DNA of 54,223 bases, counting the filler, from Jimgerdemannia flammicorona (lineage: Eukaryota), in NCBI GenBank assembly GCA_003990765.1. It is 3 parts of 3 records of this genome, joined end to end, with 100 filler letters (N's around TTAATTAATTAA, not from the genome) between each part and the next. Parts side by side here need not be neighbours in the genome. Positions count along the whole stretch, not along the records: positions 36,219 to 54,223 come from RBNJ01002334.1; 2 more parts are not named here. One strand, given 5' to 3'. The notes beneath the pieces were generated by a model, which was not told the DNA's origin, searched no databases, and was given only the letters and a program-made list of their open reading frames with translations. The translations under genes and the position numbers were made by a program. Below are positions 19,600 to 54,223 of the stretch, piece after piece; position 1 is the stretch's first letter, and each line of letters begins with the position of its first letter.

Positions 19600-21476
19600 T
19601 AACAAAATTACATTCTAACATCACAAAGGATGTTGTAATCAAGCTAACATTATTAGATTCATATCATCAGCAAGGTTACATGCTAGAAAAACCAAGAATA
19701 TTAGTGAGATTATAATGATTTTATACTAATTTCAACTCTTGTTAGCCAGTAACATCATAGTAGTCACACTAGCCTCTGTACTAGTTTAGTATATACTCAC
19801 ACTGACATCACTATGAATATATCTAAGAAATAGACTAAGGATACTAAAAATAGCATAAACTAAATTAGTCTTTAGCTATATTGATATTATAAACTAAAAT
19901 AGTCTATGATATTATAGAAACTAGAGTATATCAAAATTAGCCATTATATCATCAGTTCTCTGATATCAAAAACTAGTAAGATCTTTGAGACCAGTAACTT
20001 CATAGGCTAAACTAGACTATGACAAGCTATGAAATCATAGTTGTTATATACTAAAATAATTAAAATTACTATACAAACTTAAAGATACTCCTCAAAAATA
20101 AAACTAAATATAAACAAATTATACTCTCTCCTTCTGAATATATCTACTAAGTACTCTGGAATACCGTCTTTGATCATCAACACCAGTTCTCCTAAGAATA
20201 TATTGATATAGATACTTATAATCTTGAGTAATATCTATAAGCTGCTGATGAAGTTATATCTAGAATACAACAGGTCACCAGATACTTCATGATATTGAGA
20301 AACTATCAGATAGATAGACTCATTGTCAGAAGTAGTATAAATACTTTAGAGATATTAGATGAATATAATATCTCTATATTTAGATAGTATATTTTACTTC
20401 ATATCTATCAATTATTTAAGAAAATGTCCTTTACCATTAGTAATATATAAAAGATAGCTCCTGTCAACATTAGTAGCCTTAATGAAACCTACACAATATA
20501 AGTAGAGTTAGATCTTATAAATGATTTTAACCTTTAAGACTATTATAATAATAATGCTTAGCTATATAAGAATGAGATATTCAACTCTATTATTGATCTC
20601 TTCTAAGGACTAATTATATTAGTCTTCATCTTTATCAGTGCCTAACCATCTGACTTTTCTATTCTCTCAAATGTTAAACTAGTCTCTGACTGGTCTACTA
20701 TATCATCTGAGGCTATAAGATCAGAAGCTAGCTCAGAGGAGTTAACCTCTTCTTCATCTAAAATAGAGTCAGATAAAAGACCTCTAATCTCTTATATAGA
20801 AGTTCATTACTACTATACAATATAATGAAATACTACATCATAAGTCTCAGTCAAAATCTTGAATAATTACCTTATAGCTATTATATGAAAATAATATCAT
20901 TAAATAGCATCATTATGACTTCATGATAATATCATTATAGTATAACTTTTATATTATTTCTAGTAACCTTCTTACTTATATTTCTTAGCCAATAGTTAGT
21001 CAAAGTTAAGAGGCCTTCAAAATATATAAATATATTTAGAGAAACAACTTAAGAACTAGTAGAATTTATAGAATATTAAATAATAGAACAATTAATGACT
21101 TAAGTCTATAATATATAAATAAGTCTCAAAATAATCTCCAATAGAAAGACTATATCTAAAAATAGATATCCTGAACTCTATATATACTTGAACTCTGAAG
21201 AATCTAAATATAATTCTCAGAACTAGACTATATCTAAAAAGAATATACCAAAAGACTTAGAATTTAAATAATTAAAGTCTATGGTTGCCAAATTGTTATT
21301 CAAGTCTACCAAAAGGAGACTAGATCAATTAGAAGTATAATAGATAGTACTTAGACATTAAGACAGCCACTTCCTCAAGCTATAGATATCTGATATAAGT
21401 GTCTTTAAGTTATTGGTATCAAGAATCATTAACTTAAAGAATATAATTACTATAATAGTAAAGACATACTGTTACA
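19600..21476 (+). mobile_element. Very decayed 3' end of an LTR retrotransposon (element D) with accessory ORF relics and a probable LTR ending TGTTACA
   Basis: Stop-riddled frame at ~20085-20800 resembles the ORFs at 41295-42251 and 34919-35762 (EVISR...NYQI...HIYQLF...IIDLF*GLII). Confidence 0.5.
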
Positions 21477-27918: not shown

Positions 27919-27951
<33 letters not shown>

Positions 27952-30880: not shown

Positions 30881-30884
30881 TTCT

Positions 30885-33800
30885 TTTGCTCAAACCACTC
30901 AGAGTGAGCTAAGCTACATAGGTATCTTTTTGTGAAAAGCAATATATTTTCAAGTTCTCACTTTACCTACACCAGTATACTAGATACAGCAGGAGCCTGA
31001 CAATAATTTACAATAAGTTTTATCAAAATTCATTAAGTTTCCATATATATAATGATAATCTAAGATTCATTGAGCTCAGAGTGCTTGAAGAGGAGGAGGC
31101 CTGGCCTGGGTCTCCTTAAGAGTTTTATAGTGGCTGCTTGAGCTGGTGGTGTAGGAAGGCAGACTAGTGGTCAGAAGCTGGTAACTGGAGTGAATGGCTG
31201 GTGTACAGTAATAGAGAGTAGGTGGGTGGCCCCTAGGCCTACAGTGGGAGGGCAGGGGGAACATAGTATTGACAGAAGTGGGTATTATGTGACTGGTCAG
31301 CTGACTGGTCAGGGGCCCAGCAGGAGTCAGGGGTCCAGAGATAAGACTGCTGGGACTGGCTTTTCTGGAGCTAGGCTGGTGGCTGGAGGTATAACTACTG
31401 GTGGTATAGTAGTTCCTGAAGAGGTAGTGGCTGGTATTTCTAAGAGTAAGAGCAAGACAACTCTGACTACAGGAACTGGTGAGTTGGTAGTACATCTATT
31501 CTTTTATAAGTCAGTATCAATGTGTACAGTCTCTGCTAATTTCTTGGACCTTGGTTTATTAGTCAAGAAGGTTCTGTGACTGGTAGGTAAGGAGGTTGCA
31601 GGGGCAGAATTACTGTGATTTATTCATTTGGCAGAGGTGGTGGAGACTGGTTTTGTTGAGAAGGAGATCACGATAAAGGTCCTGAAGAAGGAGCTAATAA
31701 TCAAGAATGTCAAGGTGAGGATGACAAGATACTTAAGGTGAGACCTATGTATAGTGAGGCTGGTGGTTGAAGGATTGCTGATGCTGAGCAGATAGGAGAC
31801 TAAGATGGTTATAGCTGAAGCTCTGGAAGGTTTTGGTGAGATGGTAGATTTCAGATTCATGTTTTGGGAGAGTATGAAGTTGAGAAATGGTAATTATGAG
31901 ACAATAGTGTGGTTGGAAGAGAAGGAGGCAACTTGGTTGGAGCAGGACTGGCCTGAGATCATTTATATTAGGAGACAAGAGTATCAGATTTAGAGGAGAA
32001 AAGACTCAGAGCAGAAAGAGAAGAGTTGCTGATTGCCCTGAAGGAGTATGATGAAGTGAAGGCTTTACAGAAGAGGAAATAGGAGGAGTTTGTCAAGAAC
32101 TGAATCTGGATTGAGATAGATAGGAAGAGGAGACAATAGTGTAAGGAGAATTAGGAGTGGTTACAGATAGTATTGCAAGAGTCTGCCAAGGAGGAGGCTG
32201 AGAGAATTGTGACTGATAGGAATCAAATAGAAGGAGTAGAGGTAGCTGAAGTATCCTTCTCACAGCTAGGGAGAGTAGGAACCTCTGAGTATATATCTAT
32301 AAAGAAAAAGTGGGCTGATGGTGAGAAAGAGAGGAGAGCAGGCTTTAAGGAGGATGTTGAGGTAGTCTCTGAGACTCAGATAGAGGACATACATAACAAT
32401 AACCAGGTTGACAAATATATACTGGGAATTTCCTGAGGCTGGGAAGGTCATGCAGCTAAACAAAGTTTCAAAGGAGAATGATCTGGTAGAGATTGCTTCA
32501 GATGTATCTGTAGATAGATAATTGCTTTAGGAGCTGTGTAGGATCCCTAGATCTGCCACTCCAGGACTAATGGTAATGATAGTAGATGGTTGGTTCCAGG
32601 CTGTCCTGGAGGAGCTTGCAGAGAAAGACATTAAGGAAGTGGATGTATTTCAGAGTTCTCTGGAGGTATGAGAAGAGTTTCTTAAGGTAGCATTGCAAGG
32701 ACTGAAATTGGTAACCACTATGGTAGCAGTCCTCCTGAAGAATGAAGGGTATGAGATGGATGAAGCCTAGATGGCAGATATCAGAAAGGTAGCATCAGAA
32801 TGAGTGAACTTCTTCTGAGGCAGTATCAATGAAGAGTGAATTTGGAGAGTCATCTGTGAGGAGTATCAGAATATCATCAAGGGTAGAGCTGAGAAGGTGG
32901 TGACAGTAGCAGCAGATATCTAAACTCACTATCTATGATAAAGAACAACTTATGTCTTTTATCAATTAATGTCAATGATCTGTATAATAGGGTTAAGTGG
33001 TAGCATCTTTTTTGGTGGCTGAAGGTCCAGAGGTATGATGTGATATTTCTTCAGAGTATTTGGGCTTATGATATATAGGACTATGAGTTATAGAGTAAGG
33101 AATGGTTTGGAGGTGCTGGTTGGAATAAGTAAGTGAGTATTCTAGTTGGGGTTTGAAAGGATAAGCTAGTTGATATGGAAATCTTTAGTAGTTATCTGGT
33201 GTGTGGAAGACTGAAGGAAGATAATGGGGATGGACTTTTGGTGGGCTCAGTATATCTGCCAGTAGTTGGCAGAGAGTGAAAGCAATTGAGGGGAGGCTCT
33301 TAGAGATTGGGGGGTTGCCACATCTCCCTGGCAGGGTGGGTGTCGATTTTGAATATCTACTGGTTCCCCAAGCTATGGTATGTGGCCTATCACTTGGACT
33401 TTTCAGCTTGGGTGGTGAAGAGGCTAATGAAACTGACTAGAGATTGGATTTGAACAGAGAAGAGGTCCCAGATTAGTTGGTATACTCTTGCAATACCAGT
33501 GGTTAGGGGAGGACTAGGCCTTGTAGATTTCTCTAAGCAGCTGCACTGTCTGTGAGCTTGGTGGTTGAAAAGGGTAGTTGAACTGTAGGAAGGAGGATAG
33601 GTACCACTGATGCAGAAGGTGTGGGAGATGAGATTCTCTCCTTGGGGGTCCTTAGGAGATTTGCTCTCTCTAGTGGGTTTAAATGGAAGCTGATGGCTAT
33701 AGTATAAGAGATTCTGGTGGGGGGTGGTGGATAAAGTACACTGGATTGACCTGTATTGGCAAGGAGGTGCTGTGGGGTTTAGCTATGTGGTGATGGGACA

Positions 33801-34132
33801 GACTACTTCTGGGGGGGGTTCTGCTTACTAAGTTTGATATTGGTGATAGAGTGGAGTATCAGAGGGGACTTGGTCAGAATCTTTGACCAAGTAGTTGGCA
33901 GGTAGTGGAGATTGGTGAGGAGTGAGACTGGGTAGGAATCTGGTTCTAGAATGCTGAGGTGTGGAAGTGGCTTCCTCCCAGGTTCTGAGTGATATGGTAG
34001 TGGATGCTGAGGAGGAATATTATATTGAATTTCTGTGCTGGGCATCTGGTGGATAGTGGCCAATTAGATTGTGAGGAGTGTTATAATGTAGGGCAAGTTG
34101 GAGGATTTGTGCAAATGCCAGAATATTGGCTA
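30885..34132 (+). mobile_element. L1/Tx1-like LINE: 5' UTR, ORF1 (~31050-32923), ORF2 from 32935 with an internal deletion removing RT
   Basis: ORF2 begins MIKNNLCLLSINVNDL...LFWWLKVQRYDVIFLQ (APE endonuclease N-terminus); within ~400 nt it jumps to the post-RT motif DWI*TEKRSQISWYTLAIPVVRGGLGLVDF. Confidence 0.8.
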
Positions 34133-34907
34133 TGTAATAACTCTCACTTCTACTCCTCTCTTATCCTTTGGATAATTAGAGAAGTGAACTATTACTTAGG
34201 AACTTAGTACACAATGTGTACCAAGAAGCCTTCAGTTTGAGGAAGTGCTTGCTTAAAAGTAGTTAGAGTGGCAGTGCCTTTGGTTTCAAAGGTCTTTCTC
34301 TATTGCCCTATTTCAAGGGTCTTGTTCTTTGCTGTACACAGACTGAATTTGCCTTGGAATTCAGGTTCAATGGGTTTACTTAAGTCTTTGGAAATTTATA
34401 TACCAGTCTCAGTTCTAGCAGAAGTTAGCTAGGCTTCTGGAGTTTAGTCAGAAACACTAGAGTCACTTAGATGTCATTACTAAGACTCAGGGGAATGTGG
34501 GTGTGTGGGGGGGACTTGATTCTTGTATCAAGGACTGAACTAAAACTGCTTTATTTCGGATGGAAACTAGGGGGTATTTATACAAGTTGGTCTGTGATTT
34601 CTGACTAAGTATGAGTGACTAATTTGGTAACTATAATGAGGTTTGTGATCGCGATCTTTATCAGGTGGTTTTTGGTAAAGAATATCTTTGTGATCAGAAT
34701 CTCAATCACTAGGGAATAATCAGCAGCTGTGGCAACAGTTGCTGTGGCACCGATTGTTAGGATAAGCTAGATATTGTTTTCCACATCATTTCATATCATT
34801 CATCACTCACTATTCATATGTCACACTCGATCATTTGATGATGTCATCACTGGGTCACGTGATCATTTGTGATTGCTTGTCACATCTCATCTGTTTATTC
34901 TATTACA
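34133..34907 (-). repeat. 3' LTR of element C (775 bp), inserted in the LINE
   Basis: Termini TGTAATA...TATTACA; preceded on minus by PPT GGGGGGAAGGA (34908-34918) and a CAATGAGGACATTG hairpin; LINE homology with 18110-18912 stops exactly at 34132. Confidence 0.85.
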
Positions 34908-34918
34908 TCCTTCCCCCC

Positions 34919-35762
34919 TTAGAAATCAATGTCCTCATTGATTGAGAAATTGAGAACCAGAGGAGAGAAAGATAGAGAATCCTGCTCAGGATTGTTGGCA
35001 TCTTCTTCAGTAGCAGGGGGGGTGGTGGTTGCTGATAGCTCACTGTCCAGAATGGAGAAGTCAATGAGGTCTGCAAATGGTTCTTGCATTGAGATAGGTA
35101 CTGGTATAGGGGTTCTCCATCTGATGTGGTTGGGGCCATCCAAGTAGGGTTCTTGGTTCTCATATCTGGGAATATCCATTTGGATGGGCAGTCCTTCAAA
35201 GAGGTCAGAGAGGCCTTGGAGCCATTGGTCAGAGTTGTCATTCAGGAGGGGGCTCCAGTAGGGTTCACAGTCAGTAGACTTGAGAGTGATCCAGGAGTTG
35301 GCTTCTTGGGCTATCTTGATCTCTAGTTTGTCAACCTCAAAGAAGGAGAGGTTCTGGAAGTCCTTCAGTTGGACATAGTTGAGGTTGAGGATTACAAAGA
35401 GTGTATGGCATGATTTGATGGACCTTCTTGACAAGTCTTTGCTCGCTCTCATCCAGGTGGGTCCAATCAGAGACTTGGTTTATGGGCAGATCCTTTACCC
35501 AATGGAGGAGTTGATGGCCAATCTTGTATTTATACCAGATCTCTAGGTGACTAGTGGCAAGGTAGGCTCTTTCGATGACTTCATGGTAGTTGAGGACATA
35601 ATATCCTAGGTCCTGGCTGGAGAGGTCAAGGGCCTCTGAGTGACAGTTCCTTCCTTGGATAGCCACCTGGATGTGTCCAAAGAGGTGGTCAACCTGACTT
35701 GGGAGAGGCTGACTATAGCAGGCAGTTTGGCAGCAGATAGCTTGGTTGCAGATAGCAGGCAT
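34919..35762 (-). pseudogene. 3' accessory ORF of LTR element C (one frameshift), homolog of 41295-42251
   Basis: ORFs 35337-35762 and 34919-35452 join into one ~280-aa protein that ends at the PPT. Confidence 0.7.
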
Positions 35763-35789
35763 TCTTGTCTTGTCTTTTCTTTATGAGGA

Positions 35790-36118
35790 GAGGGGGATGA
35801 GAGTTGCAGGGTATTCTTGCCTAGGGGGTGGGGGATAGTTGGCTCACTGTAGGATAGGTGCTAGCAGTATGGGTGGGACTAGCGGGCCATTGGTTTTTTG
35901 TATTTGAAGAGAGGCAGTGGTTGGGGCTGCATGAGAAGATATTAAGGTGGGAGGAGCTGGTGGGGGATCTGCTGACCGGGTAGTGGGTGGGTTGGAGTCC
36001 TCAGGGAGGTCGACATCACGGTTTGGTGATGAAGATCTGTGAGCAGAGTGGTGGGAGGGTGGGGATGGTGTTCGACAAAGTGGTCTTTCACAGAGAAGGG
36101 GTAGGGGGGGGGGGGCCC
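35790..36118 (+). mobile_element. LINE 3' region, resuming after element C
   Basis: Similar to ~19020-19330 and nearly identical to 36219-36315. Confidence 0.7.
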
Positions 36119-36218
36119 NNNNNNNNNNNNNNNNNNNNNNNNNNNNNNNNNNNNNNNNNNNNTTAATTAATTAANNNNNNNNNNNNNNNNNNNNNNNNNN
36201 NNNNNNNNNNNNNNNNNN
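36119..36218. other. Artificial contig linker
   Basis: N44-TTAATTAATTAA-N44. Confidence 0.98.
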
Positions 36219-36389
36219 TTAGTGATGAAGATCTGTGAGCAGAGTGGTGGGAGGGTGGGCATAGTGTTCGACAAAGTGGTCTTTCACAGGGAAGGGATAG
36301 GGGGGGGGGGCCCCCCAAGGGGGATTGGATAGGGGGGGGGATCGTTGTAATTATAGAATAGATCGGTAATAAAGGGCAGTCCAAGTGAC

Positions 36390-36433
<44 letters not shown>
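36219..36433 (+). mobile_element. LINE 3' end with AATAAA and poly(A) tail, inserted into element B
   Basis: G-run 3' UTR, AATAAA at 36368, A-run at 36393-36433 abutting the element B reading frame. Confidence 0.85.
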
Positions 36434-36437
<4 letters not shown>

Positions 36438-37229
36438 CATATGTGAACACTTCATCAGCTTCCACTCACCAAGAGATGATTGTAGCAATTGCCGAATCCT
36501 AGATCTCAAGAAGATTCCAATGCTAGAAATTGATGACAAGGATGAATTGAAGTAAGCACCATCCCACAGCCGAATGCAATCTCCAACCCCGAAGACCTTC
36601 AAGAAGACCTATAAGGAAGGACAGAAGATCCTTGCCCGCCAAACATTCGAGTCCCTCACCATCAAAGGAGAAAGCAACAGTTCTTACACTATCACTCGGG
36701 CCCTCCAGATCACACAGCCCACCTATGATAAGTATCGGAAGAGATTTCCTACCAGTAGGGAGGTCAAACAGTGAAATGAAGACTTTGTCAAGAAGGGACA
36801 TTGTGATTGTGGAAAAACCTTTACCTGCTACTGGTGTGAACATCGAGATGTTCATCTCAGCGAAGATGTCTACAAGAGCCGAGTCAAGAGAAAGGATCCC
36901 ACCCTGTAAGAACCTTGAATTTGCTGGGCCTGTCAGAAGTGCAAAGAAATCAACCATGAAGGAGATTGTAAGTTCAAGAGCAAGACCTCTATCTGGGACC
37001 TACCATTGGAAGTTCTTGCCATTATTCACTGGTACTGTCGCCCTCATCAAGGAAAAGAAGGTGTCAACCTTGCCTTCATCCTTATGGAAGCTCTGGACCC
37101 TCTAGGAAAGACTGGATTCAATTACACAAGAAACTCAAAGACGGGAGCTCACTGGCCTTTCTTCAAACTGGAGCGCATGGACTTCTCACCTATAATGGCA
37201 ACAGCTGAAGCGCCATTTCTCAAAGCTCA

Positions 37230-37645
37230 ACCAATTATCCAGATCAAGCTGCTTTCCCCCTGGGCGCAGCCACCTCTTACACAAACAGAAGGATCAGTTG
37301 GTTATGACCTCTGCCTTCCCTACTAAGCAAGAATCCGACCCAGAAGTACCAGGACTTTTGACCTACAGATTGCACTTGCTATACCACCTGGGCATTATGG
37401 ACAGTTGGCCTCAAGATCCTCATTGGCAACCAAAGGAGTCACAGTAGAAGGAGGAGTCATCGATCAGGACTACCGAGGTCCCTTGAAGGTCATTATCCAC
37501 AATTCTAGTAAAACCAGCCGATTCTTCAGTCCTATGGAAGCCATCTGCCAAATCCTGTTTATCAAGACATCACAGCCAACCATCTAAGAGGTAGACCAAC
37601 TAGAAGATACCAACAGAGGACAAGGAGGCTTTGGAAGCACCAATA
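37230..37645 (+). pseudogene. Trimeric dUTPase domain in element B pol
   Basis: All five motifs: GSVGYDL, GQLASRSSLA, GGVIDQDYRG, ICQIL, RGQGGFGST; two nonsense changes. Confidence 0.93.
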
Positions 37646-39481
37646 GAAATCTATGGACACCACCTATCGAGGTTCATTTGGCAACAGTTGCTCAATTCTG
37701 ACAAATGAGACCCCATATCTGCCACCCAATCCGAGCAAGAGAAGACATCCTCCTGCAGCCCTACCAGCAAAAAGGCCTAGATGTGCACCTACCAGTAGAA
37801 GCAAACAACTTGATATTTGCACCATCACTGGAGCTTCAAAAGGAATACCACATCCTCCTGGCTGAAGAACGAATTCATGACCAGATGTCACCAATCCACA
37901 TCCCTATCAGAAACTCGGGCTTCGAAGTGATAACTATCCCTAAGGGAACAACACTGGGATATTTCGAACCACTGATAGACACCTACAAGGAAGAAGTCTT
38001 TGAATTCTTGGGAAATGGCAAGCTCTCTCCGGTGAGACTGATGGTACCAGGGAGGAAGACTCAGCAAATTCAGCGATCAAAGCCATCGATATCGAGACAA
38101 CTCTAACCAAAGACCAGCAACAACAAATACAGGAGTTGATAGAGGAGTACAAAGATATATTTACCACCACATACGATAACTTCTCACCATATCAATATGG
38201 AGAACACCCTATACATACTGGAGATGCAAGACCAATCTGACAACGACCCTACCGAACACCACATCATCTGATTGAATTCAAACAACAACACATAGACGAA
38301 ATGCTACGAAACAGAGTCATCAGACCATCATCAAGCCCCTGGGCCTCACCAGCAATCATAGTACCAAAGAAAGGAGGATGGAGATTAGTTGTGGATTTCA
38401 GAAAACTCAACAAAGTCACCACAGAAGATGCCTACCCACTGCCAAGAATTGATGACCTCATCAATGCCCTCGGAAAAGCCAAATACATGACCACTACTGA
38501 CCAGTTCCAAGGATTCCAAGTAATACCCATTGCCAAAGAAGATATCTGCAAGATGGCCTTCATCACCAGATGAGGACAGTATGAATACCTCCGAATGCCC
38601 TTTGGACTCTGCAATGCATCTGCCTTATTCCAACGAATGATGAACTATATCTACTAGGACCTCATTGGAAGAAATGTACTAGTGTACATAGATGATGTCA
38701 TCATCTACTCTAAGACATTCAAGCAGCATTTGCAAGACCTCCGTGAAGTATTCAATACCATTCAAAATTCAGGACTCAGACTCAATGCCAAGAAGTGCTT
38801 CTTCAGAAAACATCAAGTCGAATATCTGGGATATGTTGTCTCAGCTCAAGGAACACATGCCGACCCCCGCAAGGTAGAGAAAGTCAAGAACTATCCAACC
38901 CCGACCTTAGCAAAGGAGACCCTATCCTTTCTTATGCTGGCATCCTACTATCAACGATTCATCCCAAGGTTTTCAGATAAGGCAGCACATCTCTGAGATA
39001 TCTCCAAGAAGGACCAACCATTCTACTGAAAAGAAGAATAATAAAAGTCATTCGACCTACTCAAGAAGGCACTTACTGAAGCCCCTGTCCTGGTGTGACC
39101 AGACTTTGGCAAACCATTCATCCTGGCAACTGATGCCTCAGCCTTAGGACTTGGATCAATTCTGTCTCAGCAAGATGACCAGAAGAGGGAGCATATTATC
39201 GAATATGCTAGCAAGGCCACAAATGAAATACAAGCGAACTATGGAGCCACTAAGTTGGAATGCCTAGCAGTAGTTTGGGCTGTGGACCACTTCCGACACT
39301 ATCTCTTGGGAAAGAGATTTGCCCTCATTACTGACCATCAAGCTCTACAATGGTTATTCAACAAGCCGGAGCCCTCAGGAATCTTCGCTAGATGGATCAT
39401 GTCTCTGCAAGAATATCAGTTCACTATTGTCTACAAGAAAGGTGCTAAGAATTCCAACATCGATACCCTGTCAAGAATCCC

Positions 39482-40762
39482 ATGAAACCAATAAGAAGGG
39501 AAGGAGCCCCCACGAGAGAAGGCTGCTTCCCGCTCACCCAAATGAACCAAGAATTGCGCCTCGCCCTCACCTGGAGTCTACACCATAGAAGCTTCAAGAA
39601 AGGAATCCAACCAGCCCACAAGTTGTTTATCCAAAGGAATTTCAAGAAATTCCAAGAAGGCAATGGCGAACTTTGGAGAGTAGAAGGAGAGCAATACACC
39701 TGAGTTTCAAGAGAAGAAGAAATATTGAAGATCCTGACAACAAATCATAACCAAAATGCACACCGAGGAATTGGTGCCACAATCGCAAGAACCAAGAAGC
39801 GATACTGGTGGCCCAAGATGAGAAAACAAATTTCAACCCATATTCAACAATGTGATATCTGCCAAAGATACCGACAAAAACCTACTGACAGAGCACTATT
39901 AATACTGATTGCAGCACCAGCTGGAGCCTTTCAAAGACTGGGAATAGACATTATTGGACCCCTACCAGTAACCAGCCGAGGAAGATGCTACATCCTCACT
40001 ATTGAAGACCACCTGACAAAATGGCCCAAAGCCTTTGCCATCGAGACTGCCGATGCCCAGACAATTATTGGGATCCTGTATGATGAAATTTTCAGCTGCC
40101 ATAGTGTGCCCAAGGAAATCATTACAGACCAAGGCCAAGAATTCGTCAACCAAGCCATGAAGACCTTTGCAAGCAACTTCAAGATCAAGCTACGACCAAC
40201 AACAGCCTACCACCCACAGGTAAATAGACTCACTGAACAAATGAACCAGACCATCAAGCGAGGTCTCACTAGAACCAGAGATCAACTAAACTGGGATATC
40301 TATCTATCGGCAATTCTGTTTAGCATCCATACCTCTAAGGCAACCGCTACCCAACAGACCCCCTTCTATTTAGTGTATGGCCGAGAAGTACAAGATCCTA
40401 CTGAACCAGTCCAGCTAGATCTGTCAAAGCGAGTCACAGAAGAGATCACCCAGTTATACGATGTATGCCAGCAAGCACGAGGATTTATCACCAAGGCACA
40501 AAAACGACAAAAGAGGTACTACAACCACAAAGCCGACCTTGAACCCCTGCTCATTGGACAAAAGGTTCTGGTGTACCATACCATCATAGAAGGAAATTGG
40601 AGTGCCAAGCTTGAACCAAAATGGGAAGGCCCCTATCTCATACATTAAGTATTCTCGAACCATACTTATCAACTCAAGACCTTGGATGGAGTTATACTCA
40701 AGACCAAGATACATTGCAACTGCATAAGACTCTACTACTCAAGAGAAGCAAAATGCATTTGA
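39482..40762 (+). pseudogene. Integrase ORF of element B
   Basis: Zn-binding HHCC, DDE core and GPY motif; starts at an ATG overlapping the RNase H stop; internal stops at 39701 and 40646. Confidence 0.88.
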
Positions 40763-41294
40763 ACAATCCTGTTCACTCTGTCTGTGTCGTCTCCGCTGGA
40801 GATACAACGGATGTTTCACTCAGAACTCAAGAAAGCCAACAACGTTGGAACCAGACTCAAGCCCATCCACGTGACAGACATTGTTACTAAGAAATTGCCT
40901 CGGATTACAAGTAATACTATTTCTGATAGGTTCGAACCCCCAGCCGTGACTATGGGAGCCCTCACCCTAGACAAGGATGGCCAGTCCTCACAAATGCGCC
41001 AGCACTCCGCTCATCCCTGGAGTTAAGACCACCCAACTCTGTGTAACCCTCACCACCAAGGATGGCTCTAATTTTGCAAGAGACAGATGTGACGTACACA
41101 ATTGACAATGGAGTACCGGTGACTGCTAAGATCAGACGACATAATGGCATGACAATCAAATAGACAGCCTGACCCATTAGGTGATCATCCCAAAAGAAGA
41201 CAAGATGATCTGAGCCAAAATGAAGACCACGTTATTTAAGGAACCATACTCTGCCTCAAGGATCGGCACCAAAGAACCAAGTACCCACCACACA

Positions 41295-42251
41295 ATGCCT
41301 CCCATTCGCCGAACCAACCAGACCTCCCGCCGCTCTACCCCTTTGCCTGGCCCAAAGACCCTGATATTTGAAGCTATCAAGAAGGCCATCTGGTGCCCAG
41401 ATACTTCCAAACTCTTGAACTTCTATACTGAGGACCTTGGACACTTCATCAACTACCGGTATATAATGACCCAACAGCTCAAAAACACTACTGAACAAAT
41501 GACCCTCTGGCATGACTATGAAATCAGACACTGCCTTTGCAATGAGACTCAAGAAGGCGATTAGGAAGACCTTATTGCTGAAATGTTAACCACCAGCCGG
41601 CTAATCAAGAGAGCCCTCTGTGTCCATCAAATCTTCCGCTATATTCCCTGGGCTATAGCACACTTGCAAGGAGTAACAGCTGGCAGCCTCTCCTGCCTTT
41701 CAACTGAAGATGCTGACTGGATAGAATCTGAAGTAGCTAACGCTATTGGCAGCAACTGCATCGCTGTAGGAAGCCAACAAACCGAACCTACTCAGCCAGG
41801 TTTCCACACCACCCCACTCCGAGACAACCATCAAGGTCACCTAATGAGTCTTATGGAGATATTTGAAGGACCGCCCATCACTATAGAGACACCTGTTGGA
41901 GCTACCCCAACCACCCACCACCCTGTCAGCCACAATTCACACCTCATCATTTGGGAACCGAATCAAGAAGAAGCCCAAGAACTCCAAGACCCTGCCCCTG
42001 AAGAAACCCCCTCTGATACTGAAACTGACGAGCCTTCAGAAGAAGAAGAGGAGCAACAGAGAGTCTACCAGTCCTCTGTCTGCATTCAAGCTGTTCAAGG
42101 ATTGGAGAATGTTGTTGAAGATGACTGGCCACTTTTCTACCCCCTCACCTCTTGGCCGGTGCTTCCCCCCTTTGAGGAGAGATATGATGAAGAAGAAATC
42201 ACAACCCAGCAAGATTTGCCCACCACAGACGAAGGGTACTATTTCCTCTAG
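41295..42251 (+). pseudogene. 3' accessory ORF of element B (~318 aa, one internal TAG), unknown function
   Basis: MPPIRRTNQ...; ORFs 41220-41564 and 41583-42251 are in the same frame; acidic C-terminus runs into the proposed LTR. Confidence 0.75.
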
Positions 42252-43366
42252 AGTACCACCCATCAGCCATGAGAACCCAGCTTTTGTCAGCAAGTCCGTT
42301 TCCAGCGTTAATACCCAGTACCACCATTTTCAGCATTTTGTCAGCAGATCCAAATTCAGCATTACCACCCTCCACAACCATTTCTGGCAACAATCATCGT
42401 ATCATGTCAGCTCATCTGAATTCAGCATTGCTATCCAGTGCCGCCATTTTCAGCATTTTGTCAGCAAGTCCGAATCCAGCATTGCTATCCCCTATAACCC
42501 AATCCATAGTAAACAATAGCCTGCACCTCACATCGTGCAAACCAATAGCATAAGTTCACCACAACGTAGTATACCTTAGCCTTAGTCGTGCCCCCTCTCC
42601 TATAGCTAGCAAACTTGTATAAATAACCCATATTCTTAGAGTGAATAAACCTCAGTCAATTGGTTTTGAGAAATAACTACTGCCTCCAAGAGACTGGATA
42701 AATTCTAAGAACAAGATAACAACCTAGAGCAACAGATCACTCGGAAGTTTGAGTTAAAGAATTTTCTCTTGCCATGGAAAGAAAATGTTACCCGATGGCC
42801 ACCATTCGAGACCCAGCCAAGGATTCAAGACCAGACCGCCATTCGGACCACTGCCATTCAACTGCTATTCGAGATTCAAGATCTGGAAAACCAAGGAACC
42901 CAAGGATACCCAGCCAAACAAGACTGCAGCCTAAGACCTGCCAAAGGATACTAGACCGCCAAAGACCGACCCACTGCCAAAAGACCCGAATGACTGCCAG
43001 GAACCTAACAAGTTAAGACGGATGAGCGAGCCATCGACCGATTCCCAACCTACTGTACCATGGACTGCTTTAATTAACCGCATAAAGAGCAAGACCGTCA
43101 AGACTGTTGCCACATAAATTCAAGTTCGCTGCCAAGTTATTTGCCGCCCTTATCCACTAAACAGTTGAGCCACGATCGTTAAACAACCGAATGACCTCAC
43201 CATCGACGTCCTGAGCCAACGACAAACGATCTCCCGCTATTATTACTGTATGAACCGAACGACCTGTCATGTGACCATCGACCTGCGAACATCACCAATG
43301 CCTTCAGTTATACATTGTGCACTTCACCAAGTGGCACACATTGAGCCATGCAGTCAAAGTTCATTA
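42185..43366 (+). repeat. Probable 3' LTR of element B (~1.18 kb)
   Basis: Purine tract GAGGAGAGA then TGATGAAG...GTTCATTA (imperfect inverted termini); tandem CAGCATTTTGTCAGCAAGTCC repeats at 42278-42490; TATAAATA at 42618; AATAAA at 42644; no second LTR available to confirm. Confidence 0.55.
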
Positions 43367-44300
43367 TACATAAACCAATGCCACAATAGATAAAGTATGA
43401 GATAAAATCTAGCTATTATTATATATGTAACTTATAGATTATTTAGAAATTTCTCATCAAGAAGTATTAACTCAATTAAATATTGAGATAGAATGAGAAT
43501 ATTACTATCTTTAATATTCTCAAATTGATATAGCCAGAATATAGATCTTGGTCATTTAAGTTTATATTCTAGAGTTTCTAGTATAACTTATTCAGCATTA
43601 TTTAATTCCTCTATTAAATAAATATCTTTATAAAGCTATCTAATGAAACTTATAAGAATATTCTTATAGTATTTATATTTATAGATAATTTTGAAGTACT
43701 ATTATACTTAATATCTAAAGGTAATTCTTTAGAGTATTAATATTTAACAATGTGTGATCAATAGTATCTATATATATATAAATAGTACTTATAGAGGAAG
43801 TTGGGGATCTTAGTGAATAAAAATAATTTAATTTACAAGAATTTGGCAGTGGAATGAGCCAATATATATGTATGTATCTATATACTTAGGATCTAGATTA
43901 TATTTAATCTGATCATATTTTAAATATAAGTAATATAAATAAATAATCTAACTCAAAATATTGATTGATTTTGATGATAGAATTACTCATCTCTGATTCT
44001 TTCAAATACTTGTAATAATTCTTTAAGTCATTATTACTAACTAATACTAGGAATATAATTATATTAAAATGCAAATATATATACTAATCTATCAACTCTT
44101 ATATCTTAAGTAGAGATATACTATATCTGGTTTTAAATACATAAATCATTCTTCAAAACTAGATCTTATATTTCAGAATTATCCATTATCTATAGATAAT
44201 ATTCAGATAAAGATATCATTATTTGAAAGTATATATTAGATAGAAATCTGTTATATTAACTCAATTGGTAATATTATCAGAACATCTCTCTCATTTGAAG
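43367..44300 (-). pseudogene. Hypermutated cyclin gene (A/B-type cyclin box) with an upstream F-box-like motif
   Basis: Manual translation through stops: LIILPIELI*QISI*YILSNNDIF (F-box-like); LDPKYI...CQILVN*IIFIH*...VLF...TIDHTL...L*ILSIIVL..IIYKY...EELNNAE*VILETLEYKLK*PRSIFWL...LSQYLIELILLDEKFL (cyclin N and C domains). Confidence 0.75.
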
Positions 44301-44869
44301 TAAATAACTAGAAAAGTATAGTATATCTGCTATTTATACCTAATTTTATAGTAGGTATAATTAGTTACATTTTAATAGTGAATCTATTTTACTGTTAATT
44401 ACTTTTGAGATATTAAAATTACTTATGCAATTAGGGTATTATATTTAAATAGTAGTTTTGTATATAAGATCTGAGAAGTAGATAGAATATATAATAAGTG
44501 AAGAGTATACTCTATTATTGATAAAGTAATATTGAACTAAAATATAAAAAGATATTTATAAGTTATTAAATATGAGTACATATTGATTTACTATTAGTTA
44601 TCTGTATAATATTACTATTAAGCAACTAAAAGTCTCACAGAAGAGATAGAACCTCTTAATAGATCATGTGTAGTATTTGATCTAAACTATAATAATTATT
44701 TATAACTAAATATTAAATTATTTTAAATTTCTATTTTTCTATTAGAGATAAATGACTGAAATTAATAATTTAGCTATTTGTCAACCAATATATCATATCT
44801 GACTATTTATCTCAACTTTACTCCTTATTTTTTATATTATGTTTCTATTTATTTATTTATGAGTTATAT

Positions 44870-45470
44870 ATTATATCCGACTATTTGCCTCAGACCTCTT
44901 TATTTCAAACTAGATAATTCTAAGCTACTTATTGGAAAAGCCATTATACCTGTCTGAATATATTTATTTCTTAAATAATCAAATTAATATAGTTATCCTA
45001 AAGTAGTATAGACTATACTGGCTCTTTTACACTAATATAAAATCTTAGGTTTGGTGATTCACAATCTCTAAAGACTAGTTTATAGACTCATTCAATCTGT
45101 CTATAGAGATTTAGAAATAATATATATATATATTATATAGATCTCTTTTTCTTAGACCCATATATTACTCTGAGCTGATATTTTTATTTACTCACAACCT
45201 ACTAATATAAATACCATTATACTAAGATATAATAAGATATATACTATAGAGATACTTATACTATATAGAGTTGTCAATAGTCCTTCCTTCAGAGTAATTA
45301 GTAAGTTAATAATATATTTTTACTCACTTTATACAAATTATACAAATTGCATTAGCTCTTTATAGTTCTCTATAATATGAGTTTATTACTTAATAATGCT
45401 CTAGTTAAGAATAAATTACAAAGATTTAGTATATATTCTAAGAACTTTAAAAAGTTAAAGAAGATTAAGA
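44870..45470 (-). pseudogene. Hypermutated relic of a spliced gene, unknown product
   Basis: Two GTGAGT donors (~45325, ~45195) with matching AG acceptors flank exon-sized blocks in AT-rich DNA. Confidence 0.3.
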
Positions 45471-45842
45471 ATTTGAGATAAGAAAATCTGCTATACTTCT
45501 GAGATTAAGTATCTACTATATTATAATAAATATAGTATTTACTATATAACTTAAGATATAAGTTATTATAATTTATATAAATAACTAGTATTTTTAAGTA
45601 AATAAAGACCTTAGTTTTAAAATAAATAAATAATATAATAGTTTAAAACTCCTCTTATATATATATATTTTTTTAAACTCTATAACTCTGATTTTTTTTT
45701 ATAAGCTTTGTTATATCTTTATTACTTTCAATATTCTAATTATTATCAGATTAAATTAGACAATAACTAGAATAAATATATATGATAAAACTATAAATAA
45801 CTAACTTTAAAAGAGTTAGATTATTAATATAAAGAATAAGTT

Positions 45843-46306
45843 TATAATAATTTCATAGTCATATTTAGTCTTAGTACATTTTTGTATCTTTTAGTTAGTC
45901 TTTTCTTGTCATTTCTTAAACATTCTACTATGTTCTGCCACCTTTTACTTGCTTAGAAACCTTCTCTTGGTATCCAGACACCACTAGAATATTCTTGTCT
46001 TTCCTTAGTAATAAGTATCTTATCTTAGCTAGTCATAGAACCTTTCAGAACATTGTAGAATAGTATTAGTCAGCTTTATTGAGAACCTATTTCTTGGCAT
46101 TTCTCTTTCTTTCCAAGATCCTTCCAGATCTTTCTTTCAGATCATATATAAATATCCTTGTTCTCTGCTTAAATAAAGCTCGGAATATTTTCTCCCAGAA
46201 ATTCTTCAAGAATACTTGAATCTTTAAGTATCTCTCCAAGCTACTTTAGGTCAACTAGAACTTCCAGATTTAGCTACTTCCTCTTAAAGAAACTAGAACT
46301 GTTATA
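45843..46306 (+). repeat. 5' LTR of element A
   Basis: TATAATA...TGTTATA (mutated TG...CA termini); matches 51478-51951. Confidence 0.95.
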
Positions 46307-46308
46307 CT

Positions 46309-46320
46309 TGGTAGCAGTGG
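46309..46320 (+). promoter_or_regulatory. Primer-binding site, likely for initiator tRNA-Met
   Basis: TGGTAGCAGTGG 2 nt after the LTR; TGGTAGC is complementary to the 3' end of eukaryotic tRNA-iMet. Confidence 0.75.
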
Positions 46321-47374
46321 TGTCATTATATCTTGCCTTATTAAGAAACCTCACATGAATTTGGAAACTAGTCACAAATAGTCATACAAATCTGAAATAA
46401 GCTGCAAAGAGGCAGTCTATCAGCCAGACCCCTCTGCTATAGAAGAAGCAGGAAGATCACAGCTCAATATAGAGGATGTGATCAATACTATGATCTACCA
46501 AATCAAAGAACTTTAAGTATAACTAGAATAGTAGAAAACAAGAACTACAAGTATATCATATTCTGCTATAGCACCAGTTAGTTTCAAGCCACTCAAGCCA
46601 GATATCTTCAACAGCTATCAAGGAGGGCTATCTACAGATGCATGGACCTTCTAGTTGGACTAATACTTCAAGCTTACAAGAATGGAAGAAGATATACAAG
46701 TCCAATTTACCACTACACTTCTCTGAGAAAATACAACCATCTAGTAGTACAATTATATCATGGTTATCTCTGTACACTCATATGTATGAATCAGAGACTG
46801 AGAAGCCTTCAAGAGAGTTCTTCACAAGCAGTTCAAGTCCGCTAATGCTACCAAACTAGCTAGAGACAAGCTAGTGAACATTAAGCAACTCAAGTCTATG
46901 CAAAGCTATAATGTATAATTCTTGTCAATCCTACTTGAGTTACCAGTGATATCTGAGGACAAAAAGATAGACTGCTATATCTGAGGCCTGAAGAGAAACA
47001 CACAAGTCAAGGTCAAGCTAAAAGAGCCCAAAAATCTTAATAAAGCTATGAGAATTACTGATAGGTTTGATATCATCACCTTTGATAACTGTTTCAAACC
47101 AGAACACCATAAGAAGAATTACTTTGAGAACCACCATAAGAACCAATCAAAGACAGTTGGTCCAACACCAATGGACCTAGACACTATGAATAAAAAGAAC
47201 ACCAAGCTTACCCCTGAAAAAAAGGACCACCTGAAGAAATCTGAAGTTTGTTTCTTCTGTCACCAAATAGGACATATTGTAACCAAATGTCCTAAGAAGA
47301 CTAGCAAACCCTCAAGACCAGTCACTGTATTGTCCAAGAACATATCTGTCAATCTCACCACCAGTCAACCTGAG

Positions 47375-47775
47375 CTCAAGATCAAGAAGCTTCATCTGAA
47401 GACCCAGATTCCCTAATATTGAGCTATTGGTCTTAACCTATACTCAGTCAAACAAGTCACTATTCCAGTCAAGGGCTGAACTCTGGTGTCTACTGGAATT
47501 GCAGTTCAATACTCTGAAGGACATTATACTAGAATTGCACTGTGATCAGAACTCAGTATCAAACATCATTTAGATATAGGCACTAGTATCATTGATCTAG
47601 ACTTTCAAGGACAAGTTCAAGTTCTACTTATCAACCAGAAGGATCAAGACTACACAGTTAAGAAAGGAGACCAAGTCATGCAAATGATCCTAGAAAAAGC
47701 CAGTCAACTCAAGATTATAGAAGTCCAAGAACTCCCTGAAACTCAATGAGATCAAAAAGGTTTTGACAGTACTGA
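47375..47775 (+). pseudogene. dUTPase domain of element A, in frame between the gag zinc knuckle and protease
   Basis: LKIKKL...AIGLNLYS...VSTGIAV...RIAL*SELSIK...IIDLDFQGQVQVLLIN...KKGDQVMQMI...Q*DQKGFDST. Confidence 0.88.
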
Positions 47776-50700
47776 TTAAGTAGCAAGTCTTAGTGAAAAT
47801 CGAGCTCAAGCTATGCTCATTTTCAAAGGCCTAGTTAAAGGAAAAGAAGTTCAAGAACTTATAGACAGTGGAGCTATAGGGAACTTTATCAATCAGAATC
47901 TCATCAAAAGCCTCAAAATCCTTACCAAGCCTGCACCCAAGAATAATAGTATAGTCACTGCAGATGGTACTCTGTACCCCATTGAGTCAATTGCTGCCAA
48001 ACTACCCATTAAGATCCAGAAATATTAGGAACAAGTAGACTTTGAGGTTATACCACTAGGAGATCATGACCTGATCTTAGGAAAACTCTGGCTTATGAAA
48101 CACAACCCAGACATTGATTGGTATAAGAATAAAGTCACCCTACTTCAAGATGGAGTCAATATTACTATCAAGACAGACAAGACTATGAGCAAGACCCAGA
48201 TTGCAATACTGTCAGCTATACAGTACAAGAGAGTACTCAAGAAGGCAATATATGTCTTTATTGTAATAGTTTATTCTAAGAAACAAGACAAGAGACTATC
48301 AGTCAATAAAAGCATCAAGTTACTGCTAGAAGAATTCAAGGATATCTTTCCAGACAAGCTACCTGATCTATCACCTACATAAGAAGTTGATCATGAAATC
48401 AAACTGACTCCAAGATACCACCCAAGAAATATATATACTGCATATTACCACTTTAAATTGAAGTAGTCAAGAAAGAACTAGAAGAACTACTTATATGAGA
48501 AGCCATTCAGCCAAGCAAATCTCCTTATGGCTTACTAGTCTTATTCATCAAGAAGAAGGATAGTACTCTGCAAATGTGTATAAACTATCATGTACTCAAC
48601 AAACTCACTGTCAAGAACTGCTATCTACTACTCTTAATTGATCAAATCTTTGATACTCTTAAGAATGCCAAATACTTCACTAAGTTAGACCTTATGTCAG
48701 GATACTACCAGATTTGAATCAAGCCAGAAGACATTCCCAAGACTATATTCATGACCCCCTTTAGACTCTATGAATTCCTGGTCTTAGCATTTGGTCTCAC
48801 CAATTTACCCACCACATTCCAGACTCTGATGAATAAGATATTCAAGAACTAACTATTTATTTTTCTATTGATATATCTTGACAACATCCTGATCTTTAGT
48901 GTAATTAAAGAAGAATATCTCAAACATATTTGAATAGTCCTGGAGATTCTGTGAAAACACAAGCTTTATACTAAGCTCAAGAAGTGTGAATTCTTCAAGA
49001 AATAAGTCAAATACCTTGGTCACATTATCTCTGTACAAGGAATTCAAGTAGACCCATATAAGATAGAAGTAATTGAAGAATGGTCCATTCCATCAAACCT
49101 TATAGAACTCTGATCCTTCCTTGGTCTAGCTGGCTACTACCACTACTTTGTCAGAAACTTCTCTAGTATTGCCAAGCCACTGACTAACCTCATGAGGAAG
49201 GCTTTGCACTCAGACCACTACATACCCTACACCTGGGACCTCTTCTGTCAATAAGCCTTTCAAGAACTCAAGAACTGCTGACCCATGCTCTAGTCTTGCA
49301 TAATGCAGATCAAGGCCTAAAATTCATAATCACTACTGATATATCAAATTTTACCATTAGAGCAGTTCTGTTATAAGATAATGGTAAAGGACATCATTCT
49401 ATTACTTTCATATCCTGCAAGTTGGCCCTAGCTAAATAAAAGCTAGCCACTCATGAGAAGAAACTACTGGTAATAATATATACACTAGACCACTGGTAAT
49501 GTTATCTAGAAGGTATTGAGTTTAATATCATTACTGATTATCAATCTCTCAAGTACATCAATACCCAATCTACCCTGTCATATCTATAAGCCAAGTGGAG
49601 CCTCAAGCTTCAAATCTTCAATCTGACAATCATCTATAAGTCTGGCAAGACACTTTTAGTACCAGATGCCTTATCAAGATGTCCAGACCTTATCACAATT
49701 ATACAGGTTACCTTGGCATTAGAATTCCTAGACCAAATCAGGTAAGCTTATAAAGAGGACACAGTTGCTACTAGAGTTTTCTCAAACAAGCTCAAGGATA
49801 CATATACTATCAAGAACAACCTGATCTATTATTAAGATCAAGTCTATCTATCTAAAAACATGAACCTACACTATAAGGTTTTACAAGAACACTATGACTC
49901 CCCTCTTGCTGGTCATCTAGAAATTGAGAAGACTGTTAAGAACATTCAACACTACTACTATTAGTTAAGCATAGTCAAGGAAATTAAGAACTATATTGCC
50001 AGCTGTAATCTGTATTAGTACAACAAGTCTATCAACCAAGTACCAACCAGTTTGCTACAACTACTACCAATTCTTATCAAGAAATTTGAGTAAGTTACCA
50101 TAGACTTTATAACTTAACTACTACAAACTCAATCTGGTGCTAATGCTATCACCATATTTATTAACTATCTGACCAAGACTATGGTTGCTGAACTAACTAC
50201 TAACAATGCTACTATACCCAAGATTATAAGAATCTTCTTCAAGTCCATCTTCCATCACTATGACCTACTATGAGTAATTGTCAGCAATTATGACCCCAAG
50301 TTCACTAGTTACTTCTGGTAAACCCTCTTCAAGACCCTGAGAACCCAATTGGCTATATCTACCACCTTTTACCTACAAACTGATGGACAAACTGAGTGCA
50401 TGAACAGAACTCTAGAACAAATGCTTAGAAACTATGTTTCTTATAAGCAAGATGATTGAGACCACTACCTGACTTATGTGGAGTTTGTATATAACAATAC
50501 TATCCAATTATCTACTGATCTTTCCCCTTTTCAGTTACTCTATGGTCAAGATTCTAAGACCTCTGCAAGTCTATTTCCTTTTAAGAAAAGCAGTCAAATA
50601 TAAATTCCAACTACCAAGAATCTTATAGACAAAATAGACAAACTACTTAAGATTGCTACCATAAATCTTCAGAAGACTCAATAGCATCAAGCCAAGTATA

Positions 50701-51477
50701 CTGATAAGAAATGCCATGATATTACTTACACTGTTGGAGATCAAGTCCTACTGTCTACCAAGAACCTCAAGATATAATCTCAAGTCAACCACTCTTCAAA
50801 CAAATTCCAACTCAAGTATATTGGATCTTTTGAGATCATTGAATAAGTCTCTATATTCTCCTACTGCCTCAAGCTACCTGAAACCATGAGAGTATACCCA
50901 GTCTTTCATGTGTCACACCTCAAGACCTGAAACTAGTCACTGCCCTACCTTGGTCAAATTCCTAAGCCTTCTACTCCTGTAATTATTAAAGACTATATTG
51001 AGTATGAAGCTGAAAAAATCCTTGACAAATGAATCCACTACCACTATCCTAAATACCTAGTTAAGTAGATGTATTATTCTAAATATAATACTATCTGGGA
51101 ACCACTGATCAATCTCAAGAACTCTCAAGATCTAGTTTAAGACTTCGAGGTAAAATATATTGTCTAATCTCTGTAGTGACTTCCTTGAATTGTCAATGAC
51201 CTATAGTAATAATCAGTACTTTATATATCAGATGTTTACTTTGGGACCCCAGAACTAGTAGAATATTTAATAAATAAGAAGTCTACTAAAATAAAGCTAC
51301 TAGCTGAGTTCAAACTCCTTCTAGTTGGTTAGTCTGATAATAGACCCTCTGTCCTATATAAAGATGACCAATCTCTACCAATGTACCAATACAAGTTTGA
51401 GAAATTTTGATTAAATATATCTAGTCTTGTATTACCTAAGAACTCAATGAGGACATTGGTTCTTAAGGAGGGAGGGA

Positions 51478-51951
51478 TGTAACAATTTCATAATTATATT
51501 TAGTCTTAGTATATTTTTGTATCTTTTAGTTGGTCTTTTCTTGTCATTTCTTATCATTTCTTGAACATTCTACTATGTTCTGCTACCTTTTACTTACTTA
51601 GAAACCTTCTCTCAGTACCCAGATATTACTAGAACATTCTTGTCTTTTCTTAGTATTAAGTATCTTATTTTAGCTAGTCATAGAACCTTTTAGAACATTG
51701 TAGAATAGTATTAGTCAGCTTTGCTAAGAACTTATTTCTTGGCATTTCTCTTTCTTTCCAAGATTCTTCTGTATCTTTCTTTTAGATCATATATAAATAT
51801 CCTTATTCTCTATTTAAATAAAACTCAGAATATTTTCTTTCAGAAATCCTTCAAGAATATTTAAACCTTTAAGTATCTCTCTGAGCTACTTTAGATTAAC
51901 TAGAACTTCCAGATTTAGCTACTTTCTCTTAAAGAAACTAGAACTATTACA
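51478..51951 (+). repeat. 3' LTR of element A
   Basis: TGTAACA...TATTACA; carries a 10-bp internal duplication (TCATTTCTTA) relative to the 5' LTR. Confidence 0.95.
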
Positions 51952-54011: not shown

Positions 54012-54223
54012 CTGACAAGACGAGTCCCATGAAGTTGACAGCATATTGTCAAGCAGGATTGCACGCGTAGACCTTGTCAATAAATAGGTGACCATTTAAA
54101 AACAAGTCTTAAACCTACTTACCTTACGACACGTAGGGGAGTATTTTTTTTTTTTTTTTTGGCCGTTTTATAATCCCCGTGCAATAATGACAATTTCCCC
54201 GATGGTTCCGTTTTTTTTTTTTT

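Follow-up and report, generated by a model that had tools for sequence, protein, structure and literature searches.

A conserved non-env accessory protein family, probably an additional gene of Ty3/gypsy retrotransposons, in DNA of Jimgerdemannia flammicorona

The window analyzed here is a stretch of 54,223 nucleotides (nt) of Jimgerdemannia flammicorona DNA that consists of three pieces (1-18009, 18110-36118 and 36219-54223; 18,009, 18,009 and 18,005 bases). Because these pieces are artificially joined by identical linkers, N44-TTAATTAATTAA-N44, at 18010-18109 and 36119-36218, neighbourhood across the linkers is not physical. Piece 1 contains ordinary eukaryotic genes and, at its left end, retroelement relics, whereas pieces 2 and 3 consist of nested retroelement fragments. 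Three of these fragments, denoted B, C and D, carry copies of an open reading frame (ORF) that encodes an accessory protein. This protein is a new family within a known kind of feature, the additional ORF of long terminal repeat (LTR) retrotransposons, and is narrowly distributed in current data. The copies are as follows; the alignment positions refer to the hidden Markov model (HMM) of the family.

41295..42251, plus strand: accessory ORF of element B (copy B), which begins with MPP, as is typical of the family, spans 318 codons and has a terminal TAG
41562..41564, plus strand: in-frame TAG that interrupts copy B, where relatives have R, W or Q
35340..35762, minus strand: copy C, N-terminal piece, with the ATG at 35762; HMM positions 1-120, E 1.5e-44
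34919..35479, minus strand: copy C, C-terminal piece, with the TAA at 34921-34919; HMM positions 98-290, E 1.2e-63
20097..20801, plus strand: copy D, an AT-rich relic in a single frame, with 11 stops in 235 codons and 28% G+C

The initial annotation had described copy B as an ORF of about 318 amino acids (aa) at 41295-42251 and had aligned it by eye with copies C and D, noting a shared motif pattern and low DNA similarity. All these observations withstand closer analysis. Copy B comprises 318 codons with the one in-frame TAG, is preceded by another in-frame ATG at 41220, and is 75-78% identical to three intact proteins from environmental assemblies (P0001, P0004 and P0008). Copy C (35762-34919, minus strand), which lies 356 nt from the end of piece 2, is split into two overlapping open pieces offset by one frameshift near 35390-35410. 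Pairwise BLASTP aligns the N-terminal parts of B and C with 28% identity over 72 aa (E 1e-8) and their C-terminal parts with 28% identity over 105 aa (E 7e-7), and blastn finds no DNA similarity between the two copies. In copy D, the family HMM matches the core, 20193-20531 on the plus strand, with an independent E-value of 5.3e-7 and 22.2 bits; outside the family, the best HMM match in a six-frame translation of the window reaches -1.6 bits. The frame of copy D runs on to a 'DLF*GL' box at 20595 and then to tail motifs resembling those of C. With its stops read as X, copy D is 23% identical over 141 aa (BLASTP, E 4e-8) to an intact C-type ORF on a metagenomic contig, L001. A DNA alignment tolerant of repeat-induced point mutation gives scores of 58.5-101 for D against C, B and L001, compared to shuffle maxima of 64-95.5. 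The motif pattern shared by the copies is visible in two family alignments, A3 and A5.

Copy B follows the polyprotein gene of an LTR retrotransposon, element B, and the stop codon of copy C overlaps a polypurine tract (PPT). The features that define this placement, including the reverse transcriptase (RT) and integrase of element B, are listed here.

37327..37584, plus strand: dUTPase domain of the element B polyprotein, upstream of the protease/RT region (PF00692, E 1.6e-17)
38241..38993, plus strand: RT of element B, in several broken frames (RVT_1, 3.7e-8 and 1.8e-13)
39099..39482, plus strand: RNase H of element B (RT_RNaseH, 5.8e-38)
39704..40645, plus strand: integrase of element B, zinc-binding domain and core (Pfam)
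41027..41294, plus strand: 268-nt spacer that separates the pol frame from the accessory ORF in B, with a TATTTAA box about 55-60 nt before the ATG
34920-34908, minus strand: PPT overlapping the stop of copy C, followed by the LTR start, TGTAATAG, at 34907-34900

The integrase frame of element B continues via two stops and an SH3-like stretch to a conserved block at 40823-41004 and ends at 41023. The same block is present in a B-like relic (~3192-3300, minus strand), in positions 1-57 of L001, and in element E (51335-51388), a relative of element B that is described below. In E, the block shares its reading frame with the integrase SH3 domain and with a chromodomain-like stretch, and we therefore regard it as the probable C-terminus of Pol. 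Contigs of four soil-metagenome runs match the block up to 41001-41004 and then diverge. No Chromo match was detected either in the read-through of B that follows the integrase or in the accessory ORF. The spacer between the block and the ORF is 287 nt long in L001, and the order of stop, PPT and TG seen in copy C recurs there at 1249-1270. The PPT box that C and L001 share is found again at the LTR boundary of element E, where it is fixed by the LTR pair of that element. Thus, with spacers separating it from the pol end upstream and a stop that abuts the PPT downstream, the ORF occupies the slot between the pol stop and the PPT. Copy B lies on the plus strand, as do the RT and integrase of its element, and the ORF and pol block of L001 are likewise on one strand. 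Complete members of the family begin with M-P or M-D, and A is found at position -3 in B, C and L001; TATA-like boxes precede the ATG by 55-85 nt in B and L001. These start-site features are compatible with an internal promoter and are no proof of one.

The initial annotation had also placed the ORF downstream of the integrase and, in C, directly before the PPT. The latter placement is accurate, the TAA of copy C overlapping the purine tract that precedes the LTR start. The former holds for B, and no pol was found beside C or D in the window. A constant position between integrase and PPT is seen in parts, with B behind pol and the stops of C and L001 abutting the PPT, and pol next to C absent from the window. 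For element B itself, no repeat pair that could represent its LTRs was found in the window.

Just past the stop of copy B, 42285-42499 (plus strand) contains two tandem units of about 95-120 nt that are 76% identical, and metagenome contigs have joints within this repeat. The units are followed at ~42616-42650 by a TATAAATA box and AATAAA, with an LTR-like look.

Element E shows what a relative looks like when it has no accessory ORF.

45845..51949, plus strand: element E, a related Ty3/gypsy element, AT-rich and with many stops
45845-46304 and 51480-51949: LTR pair of element E, 88.5% identical

The RTs of B and E are 36% identical. Element E has an SH3_Tf2-1 domain (2.9e-14) and a Chromo match of 0.0034, which is below the Pfam cutoff. 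It retains the pol block and the last ~40 nt of the region together with the PPT (51444-51479). A second copy of E (490-2638, minus strand), inverted at the left end of piece 1 and 80% identical, is ORF-less as well; in both, the distance from the pol end to the PPT box is about 55 nt, too short for the ORF. The accessory ORF is dispensable in cis for some relatives, as both copies of E have LTRs, pol and the PPT box and lack it.

The family extends well beyond the window. A word-seeded search with B yielded 458 candidates, of which three are clusters at about 75% identity, including intact proteins of 324-331 aa. When 1,835,955,588 representative proteins were searched with a profile, 11 matched at E<=0.001, and 10 of these were accepted as members by alignment; the remaining match, P0018, a 736-aa repeat protein with E 4.7e-4, was rejected. 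Two further members, both small and complete, were obtained through cluster look-ups: P0021 (205 aa) and P0022 (246 aa). Neither a second-round search with a richer profile built from alignment A5 (four of 2041 candidates, none new) nor a search with the C-terminal piece of C as the sole query (58 candidates, all above E 0.01) enlarged the family. The 22 proteins listed were all derived from environmental assemblies of JGI/IMG or ENA, and none has an NCBI or UniRef accession. Scans for related loci confirmed one of 223 metagenomic stretches (with alignment A4), namely L001, and none of 80 viral stretches or 35 stretches from prokaryote genomes. Contigs that bear other members are 0.6-4.8 kb and 19.4 kb long; the contig whose DNA was compared is L001 (1.5 kb).

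The members fall into at least six subfamilies, that is, B-type, C-type, P0010, P0011/P0015/P0020, P0013/P0021 and P0016/P0022. Intact frames of 205-342 aa are kept across subfamilies that are only 25-40% identical; for example, P0001 (B-type) is 36% identical to the L001 ORF (C-type) across 203 aa (E 2e-31). For the sole pair with DNA, copy C and L001, the Nei-Gojobori estimates over 259 codons are dN 0.33 and dS 1.65, with a dN/dS of 0.20 that is rough, because dS is near saturation, and clear in its direction. The corresponding pN/pS is 0.40, with a bootstrap range of 0.33-0.48 (259 codons). As judged from these comparisons, the family is real and appears to be under purifying selection in several divergent element lineages, in agreement with the proposal of the initial annotation that the protein is conserved across element families, for which a dN/dS below 1 had been named as a check. 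Length variation affects the tail of the protein: a 792-nt soil-metagenome contig aligned to B has an in-frame insertion of 30 nt after 41972, which corresponds to the ten additional residues of P0001-type proteins.

The protein consists of three parts, namely, a short, moderately basic N-terminus, an all-helical domain of about 190 aa and a disordered acidic tail. The conserved boxes of the helical domain are DLGHF, W.EYEIGH.L, HQ(I/V)FRH.P and L..(L/M)FEGPPI. Two AlphaFold2 models, of P0010 and P0001, with family alignments as input, predict the same helix pattern: the first ~20 residues are disordered, a helix bundle spans residues ~20-155, and a further helix bears the L..(L/M)FEGPPI box. 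For P0010, 10-residue blocks of residues 71-160 have predicted local distance difference test (pLDDT) values of 77-94, residues 222-342 are below 50, and a short hairpin is predicted as well. For P0001, helices are predicted at 20-33, 48-86, 91-151 and 179-191, and the tail again has a pLDDT below 50. The tail carries a net charge of -12 to -27, with 21-35% D+E and at most six basic residues, in seven of the eight members examined, the eighth, P0021, being without the anchor motif used for cutting the tail. Two short hydrophobic motifs, DL(I/V).F and acidic-x-x-P-L-(V/I/F), recur in the tails across subfamilies; by eye, none of the export-signal, PIP-box, HP1-binding PxVxL and SUMO-interaction patterns fits the tails of all subfamilies. 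There is no membrane segment (maximum Kyte-Doolittle 19-residue mean of 0.46-1.09) and no signal peptide (the first 25 residues being hydrophilic) in any of the eight members. The product is soluble and is not an env protein. The initial annotation had likewise reported an acidic tail and neither a signal peptide nor a transmembrane segment.

No known family or fold accounts for the protein. Pfam gave no match in the accessory ORF (125 ORFs of the window were searched), and among 17 members searched at E<=1, no two matched a common Pfam family. The sequence search of the PDB returned one row, cystatin F, with E 0.59, which is noise. Comparing predicted structures, Foldseek found none of at least 500 PDB rows at E<=0.001 (best 0.8), and the BFVD fold search none at E<=0.001. 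VIA-align against 48,161 chains, with residues 23-181 effectively covered, gave 426 at Z>=2 and none at Z>=5, the best having Z 4.2 with a root-mean-square deviation of 3.5 over 83 aligned residues; a few DNA-binding helical domains at Z ~3 were set aside as not above background. The ESM Atlas contained no usable match for P0001 and, for residues 1-225 of P0010, nothing better than 0.90 with 136 shared features, in unrelated bacterial clusters. Among the profile matches from the 1.84 billion representatives, there is no pol-fused or long form. A literature search found no description of the accessory protein. Hence the protein is neither env nor any described domain, and is separate from pol. 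The missing Pfam, PDB and fold matches, the retroelement neighbourhood, the intact members and the dN/dS of 0.20 support the original suggestion of an uncharacterized, non-env accessory family of LTR elements.

We consider it probable that a group of Ty3/gypsy LTR retrotransposons carries the accessory ORF as an additional gene in the sense orientation, located between the end of pol and the PPT, the product of which acts in trans. The ORF lies ~270-290 nt past the pol stop and in another frame, and so would need an mRNA of its own, either spliced or internally started. The protein would then act on the life cycle of the element, the helical domain binding nucleic acid or a component of the element, while a host factor is recruited by the acidic tail.

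A comparison with retroviral regulatory proteins gives this scheme a possible mechanism. Foamy-virus Tas (Bel1) and Tax of human T-cell leukaemia virus (HTLV) are encoded 3' of the structural genes, beside the 3' LTR, and are proteins of about 300 aa whose N-terminal part is folded and whose C-terminal part is acidic. The accessory gene resembles them in its placement and in the predicted layout of a folded and an acidic part, and the TATA-like box in B and L001 would parallel the internal promoter of foamy viruses. By contrast, there is no sequence or fold match (Pfam, BFVD), which leaves room for a common fold. By this analogy, our first choice of mechanism, though a doubtful one, is a transcriptional activator or adaptor of the Tas/Tax type, the initial annotation having named a trans-activating factor as one example; the predicted combination of a folded binding domain with a disordered, motif-bearing acidic tail would fit such a role and proves nothing. 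The protein may instead be a helper of RNA export, an antagonist of silencing or a tether for integration, which are about equally open alternatives. A wider picture also deserves to be stated, even though we rate it short of probable. Fungi might harbour 'complex' retrotransposons with a regulatory gene expressed from its own mRNA, the product of which, combining a previously unseen helical fold with an acidic tail that has two docking motifs, activates or escorts the element in the manner of Tas, Tax, Rev or CERV. This gene would be old and vertically kept, and would have been lost in chromodomain-bearing relatives such as E.

Several observations weigh against an additional gene that acts in this manner. 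The full element context comes from B alone, and B is degraded, with stops and frameshifts in pol and no LTR pair; C and D have no adjacent pol in the window. ORF-less elements of the E type have multiplied too, with two copies here, so that the protein is not essential to all relatives. The subgenomic mRNA is purely what we infer. The AlphaFold models derive from shallow alignments (17 rows for P0010 and 12 for P0001) and have predicted template modelling scores of 0.50 and 0.45, respectively. The helical domain has a net charge of -7 to +1, which is atypical of a nucleic-acid binder. The family is tiny among 15 billion proteins and is confined to environmental assemblies, and its dN/dS, as noted, is a rough value.

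Two of the other possible roles are unlikely to a similar extent. The first is that the protein aids nuclear exit or packaging of unspliced element RNA, like Rev or the CERV protein of Cer1. CERV, from the Caenorhabditis elegans element Cer1, is, among the proteins compared here, the one case of an accessory protein with a demonstrated role, the export of genomic RNA, according to the available text of PMC10309623. As that text describes it, CERV is encoded by a 3' ORF in the env position, is not env-like, lacks homologues in other genera, and acts in trans as a protein that its element requires; our ORF has the same position, and its family is similarly small and lineage-specific. The arginine-rich N-terminus of B-type members would also suit an RNA-binding role of this kind, but the basic stretch is weak in C-type and P0010-type members, and inspection of the tails by eye revealed no consistent pattern of export signals. 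General searches revealed no similarity to CERV or Rev, neither of which was compared directly. CERV has, moreover, features of its own: its mRNA is spliced so as to fuse coding sequence from upstream, and the protein contains a Cys loop and a phosphoserine switch (PMC10309623).

The second is that the protein counters host defence, be it RNA silencing, heterochromatin, or repeat-induced mutation or methylation, an anti-silencing factor being another example given by the initial annotation. The elements do lie in a region of strong repeat-directed transition mutation (TpA/ApT of 1.2-1.3; 28% G+C and 11 stops in D; a surplus of T and A in B), and an acidic tail with short motifs would suit a decoy or adaptor. 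However, no match to known suppressors was found in Pfam, by Foldseek against the PDB, by VIA-align or in BFVD, and there is no sign of protection, because D and, partly, B are mutated like other copies even though they bear the ORF.

Less likely still is a tether that attaches the pre-integration complex to chromatin and replaces the integrase chromodomain of related elements. The ORF-less element E has a chromodomain-like stretch and the ORF-bearing B has none, and the acidic tail could bind histones. This contrast, however, pits one element against one, with the Chromo match of E (E 0.0034) below the threshold, and VIA-align found no chromatin-reader fold.

The idea that the ORF belongs to the C-terminus of Pol, or that it is open by chance within a conserved region of non-coding or cis-acting nature, is very improbable and is largely refuted. 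It draws some plausibility from the degradation of copy B, which makes frames difficult to trace, and from the last ~25-40 nt of the ORF, which are conserved as DNA even in E; as these terminal nucleotides are kept in an element without the ORF, part of the ORF 3' end would be cis-acting. Against it, the pol frame terminates in a conserved block and a stop 268-287 nt upstream, and the ORF, in another frame, has a conserved start; no fused protein occurs among 1.84 billion representatives; and B-type and C-type proteins are 36% identical without DNA similarity between B and C, at a dN/dS of 0.20. Equally improbable is a host gene that was captured, or a protein of the env-like or movement type: retroelements do capture host ORFs at this position (in rotifers, PMC5408684, and as plant additional ORFs, PMC7264820, to judge from the portions available), but neither Pfam nor the profile search of 1.84 billion proteins revealed homologues of other kinds, and the protein has no signal peptide or membrane segment.

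Setting these alternatives aside for an additional gene on the sense strand, a close comparison is with the additional ORFs of plant retrotransposons. In the accessible text of PMC7264820, these resemble the accessory ORF in position, orientation, conservation within families and the lack of clear database homologues, and their function is given as unknown; splicing is reported there as the expression route for some of them. They differ in that they often have predicted membrane segments, of which the accessory family has none; there is no sequence relation, and the host here is apparently a fungus. In B and L001, the accessory ORF has both the placement, from the pol end to the PPT or 3' LTR, and the same-strand orientation that characterize the aORF-3S class. 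For fungi, Novikova et al. 2010 mention an 'add. ORF' of unknown function in some Gypsy elements, as well as elements with a dUTPase, a trait known in some gypsy elements of basidiomycetes and Tuber (PMC2864245, in part). The likeness of that 'add. ORF' to ours is one of description, the available text giving neither its sequence nor its position or family (PMC2864245). The Boty-like elements of Botrytis carry an antisense gene, brtn (Zhao et al. 2011, as cited in the available parts of PMC8365987 and PMC7264820), whereas the accessory ORF of B is in the sense orientation; the two are set apart by this description and not by their sequences.

Most known additional ORFs come from plants and from a few animals; hardly any has an assigned function, and in fungi they have barely been noted. 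The extra gene described here encodes a selected protein family, with a two-part architecture and defined motifs, that spans lineages with about 30% identity between the ORF proteins. It thereby offers a concrete object for asking whether retrotransposons outside animals use retrovirus-like regulatory proteins. In fungal genomes, ORFs of this kind are commonly masked or annotated as hypothetical genes, and the family profile can be used to annotate the elements there.

The remaining features of the window are the genes of piece 1 and blocks of skewed base composition.

4294-5301, plus strand: F-box protein (piece 1, Pfam)
7478-8538, plus strand: S33-type hydrolase, two exons (piece 1, Pfam)
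12190-13249, minus strand: RRP36 (piece 1, Pfam)
14877-17968, minus strand: SET1 with SET_assoc, N-SET and SET domains (piece 1, Pfam)
1-4000; 19400-22000; 43000-46000; 50000-52000: AT-rich blocks of 21-28% G+C (base composition)

In the blocks 1-4000, 44001-46000 and 50001-52000, TpA/ApT is 1.2-1.3 and (CpA+TpG)/(ApC+GpT) is 0.72-0.93; around copy D, both indices are borderline (1.09-1.16 and 0.99-1.11, respectively). The dinucleotide pattern of the AT-rich blocks looks like that of repeat-induced point mutation (C-to-T). Compared to its metagenome relatives, copy B has a mild surplus of T and A.

The C and D loci have further structure in common. A repeat of about 800 nt, 75% identical between 18119-18914 and 33345-34132, lies beside both copies and may be a long LTR, a non-autonomous element or a segmental duplication. 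A G-rich segment with an A-run of about 40 recurs at 19030-19432, 35815-36118 and 36219-36433, and this unit always stops at the A-run; the copy at 36219-36433 precedes the gag of element B, and the others lie beside C and D. The repeat together with the G-rich segment was considered as the 5' LTR of B and D, and this reading was dropped because the 3' flank of B shows no similarity to the repeat. The final 96 nt of piece 2 and the opening 96 nt of piece 3 are 94% identical.

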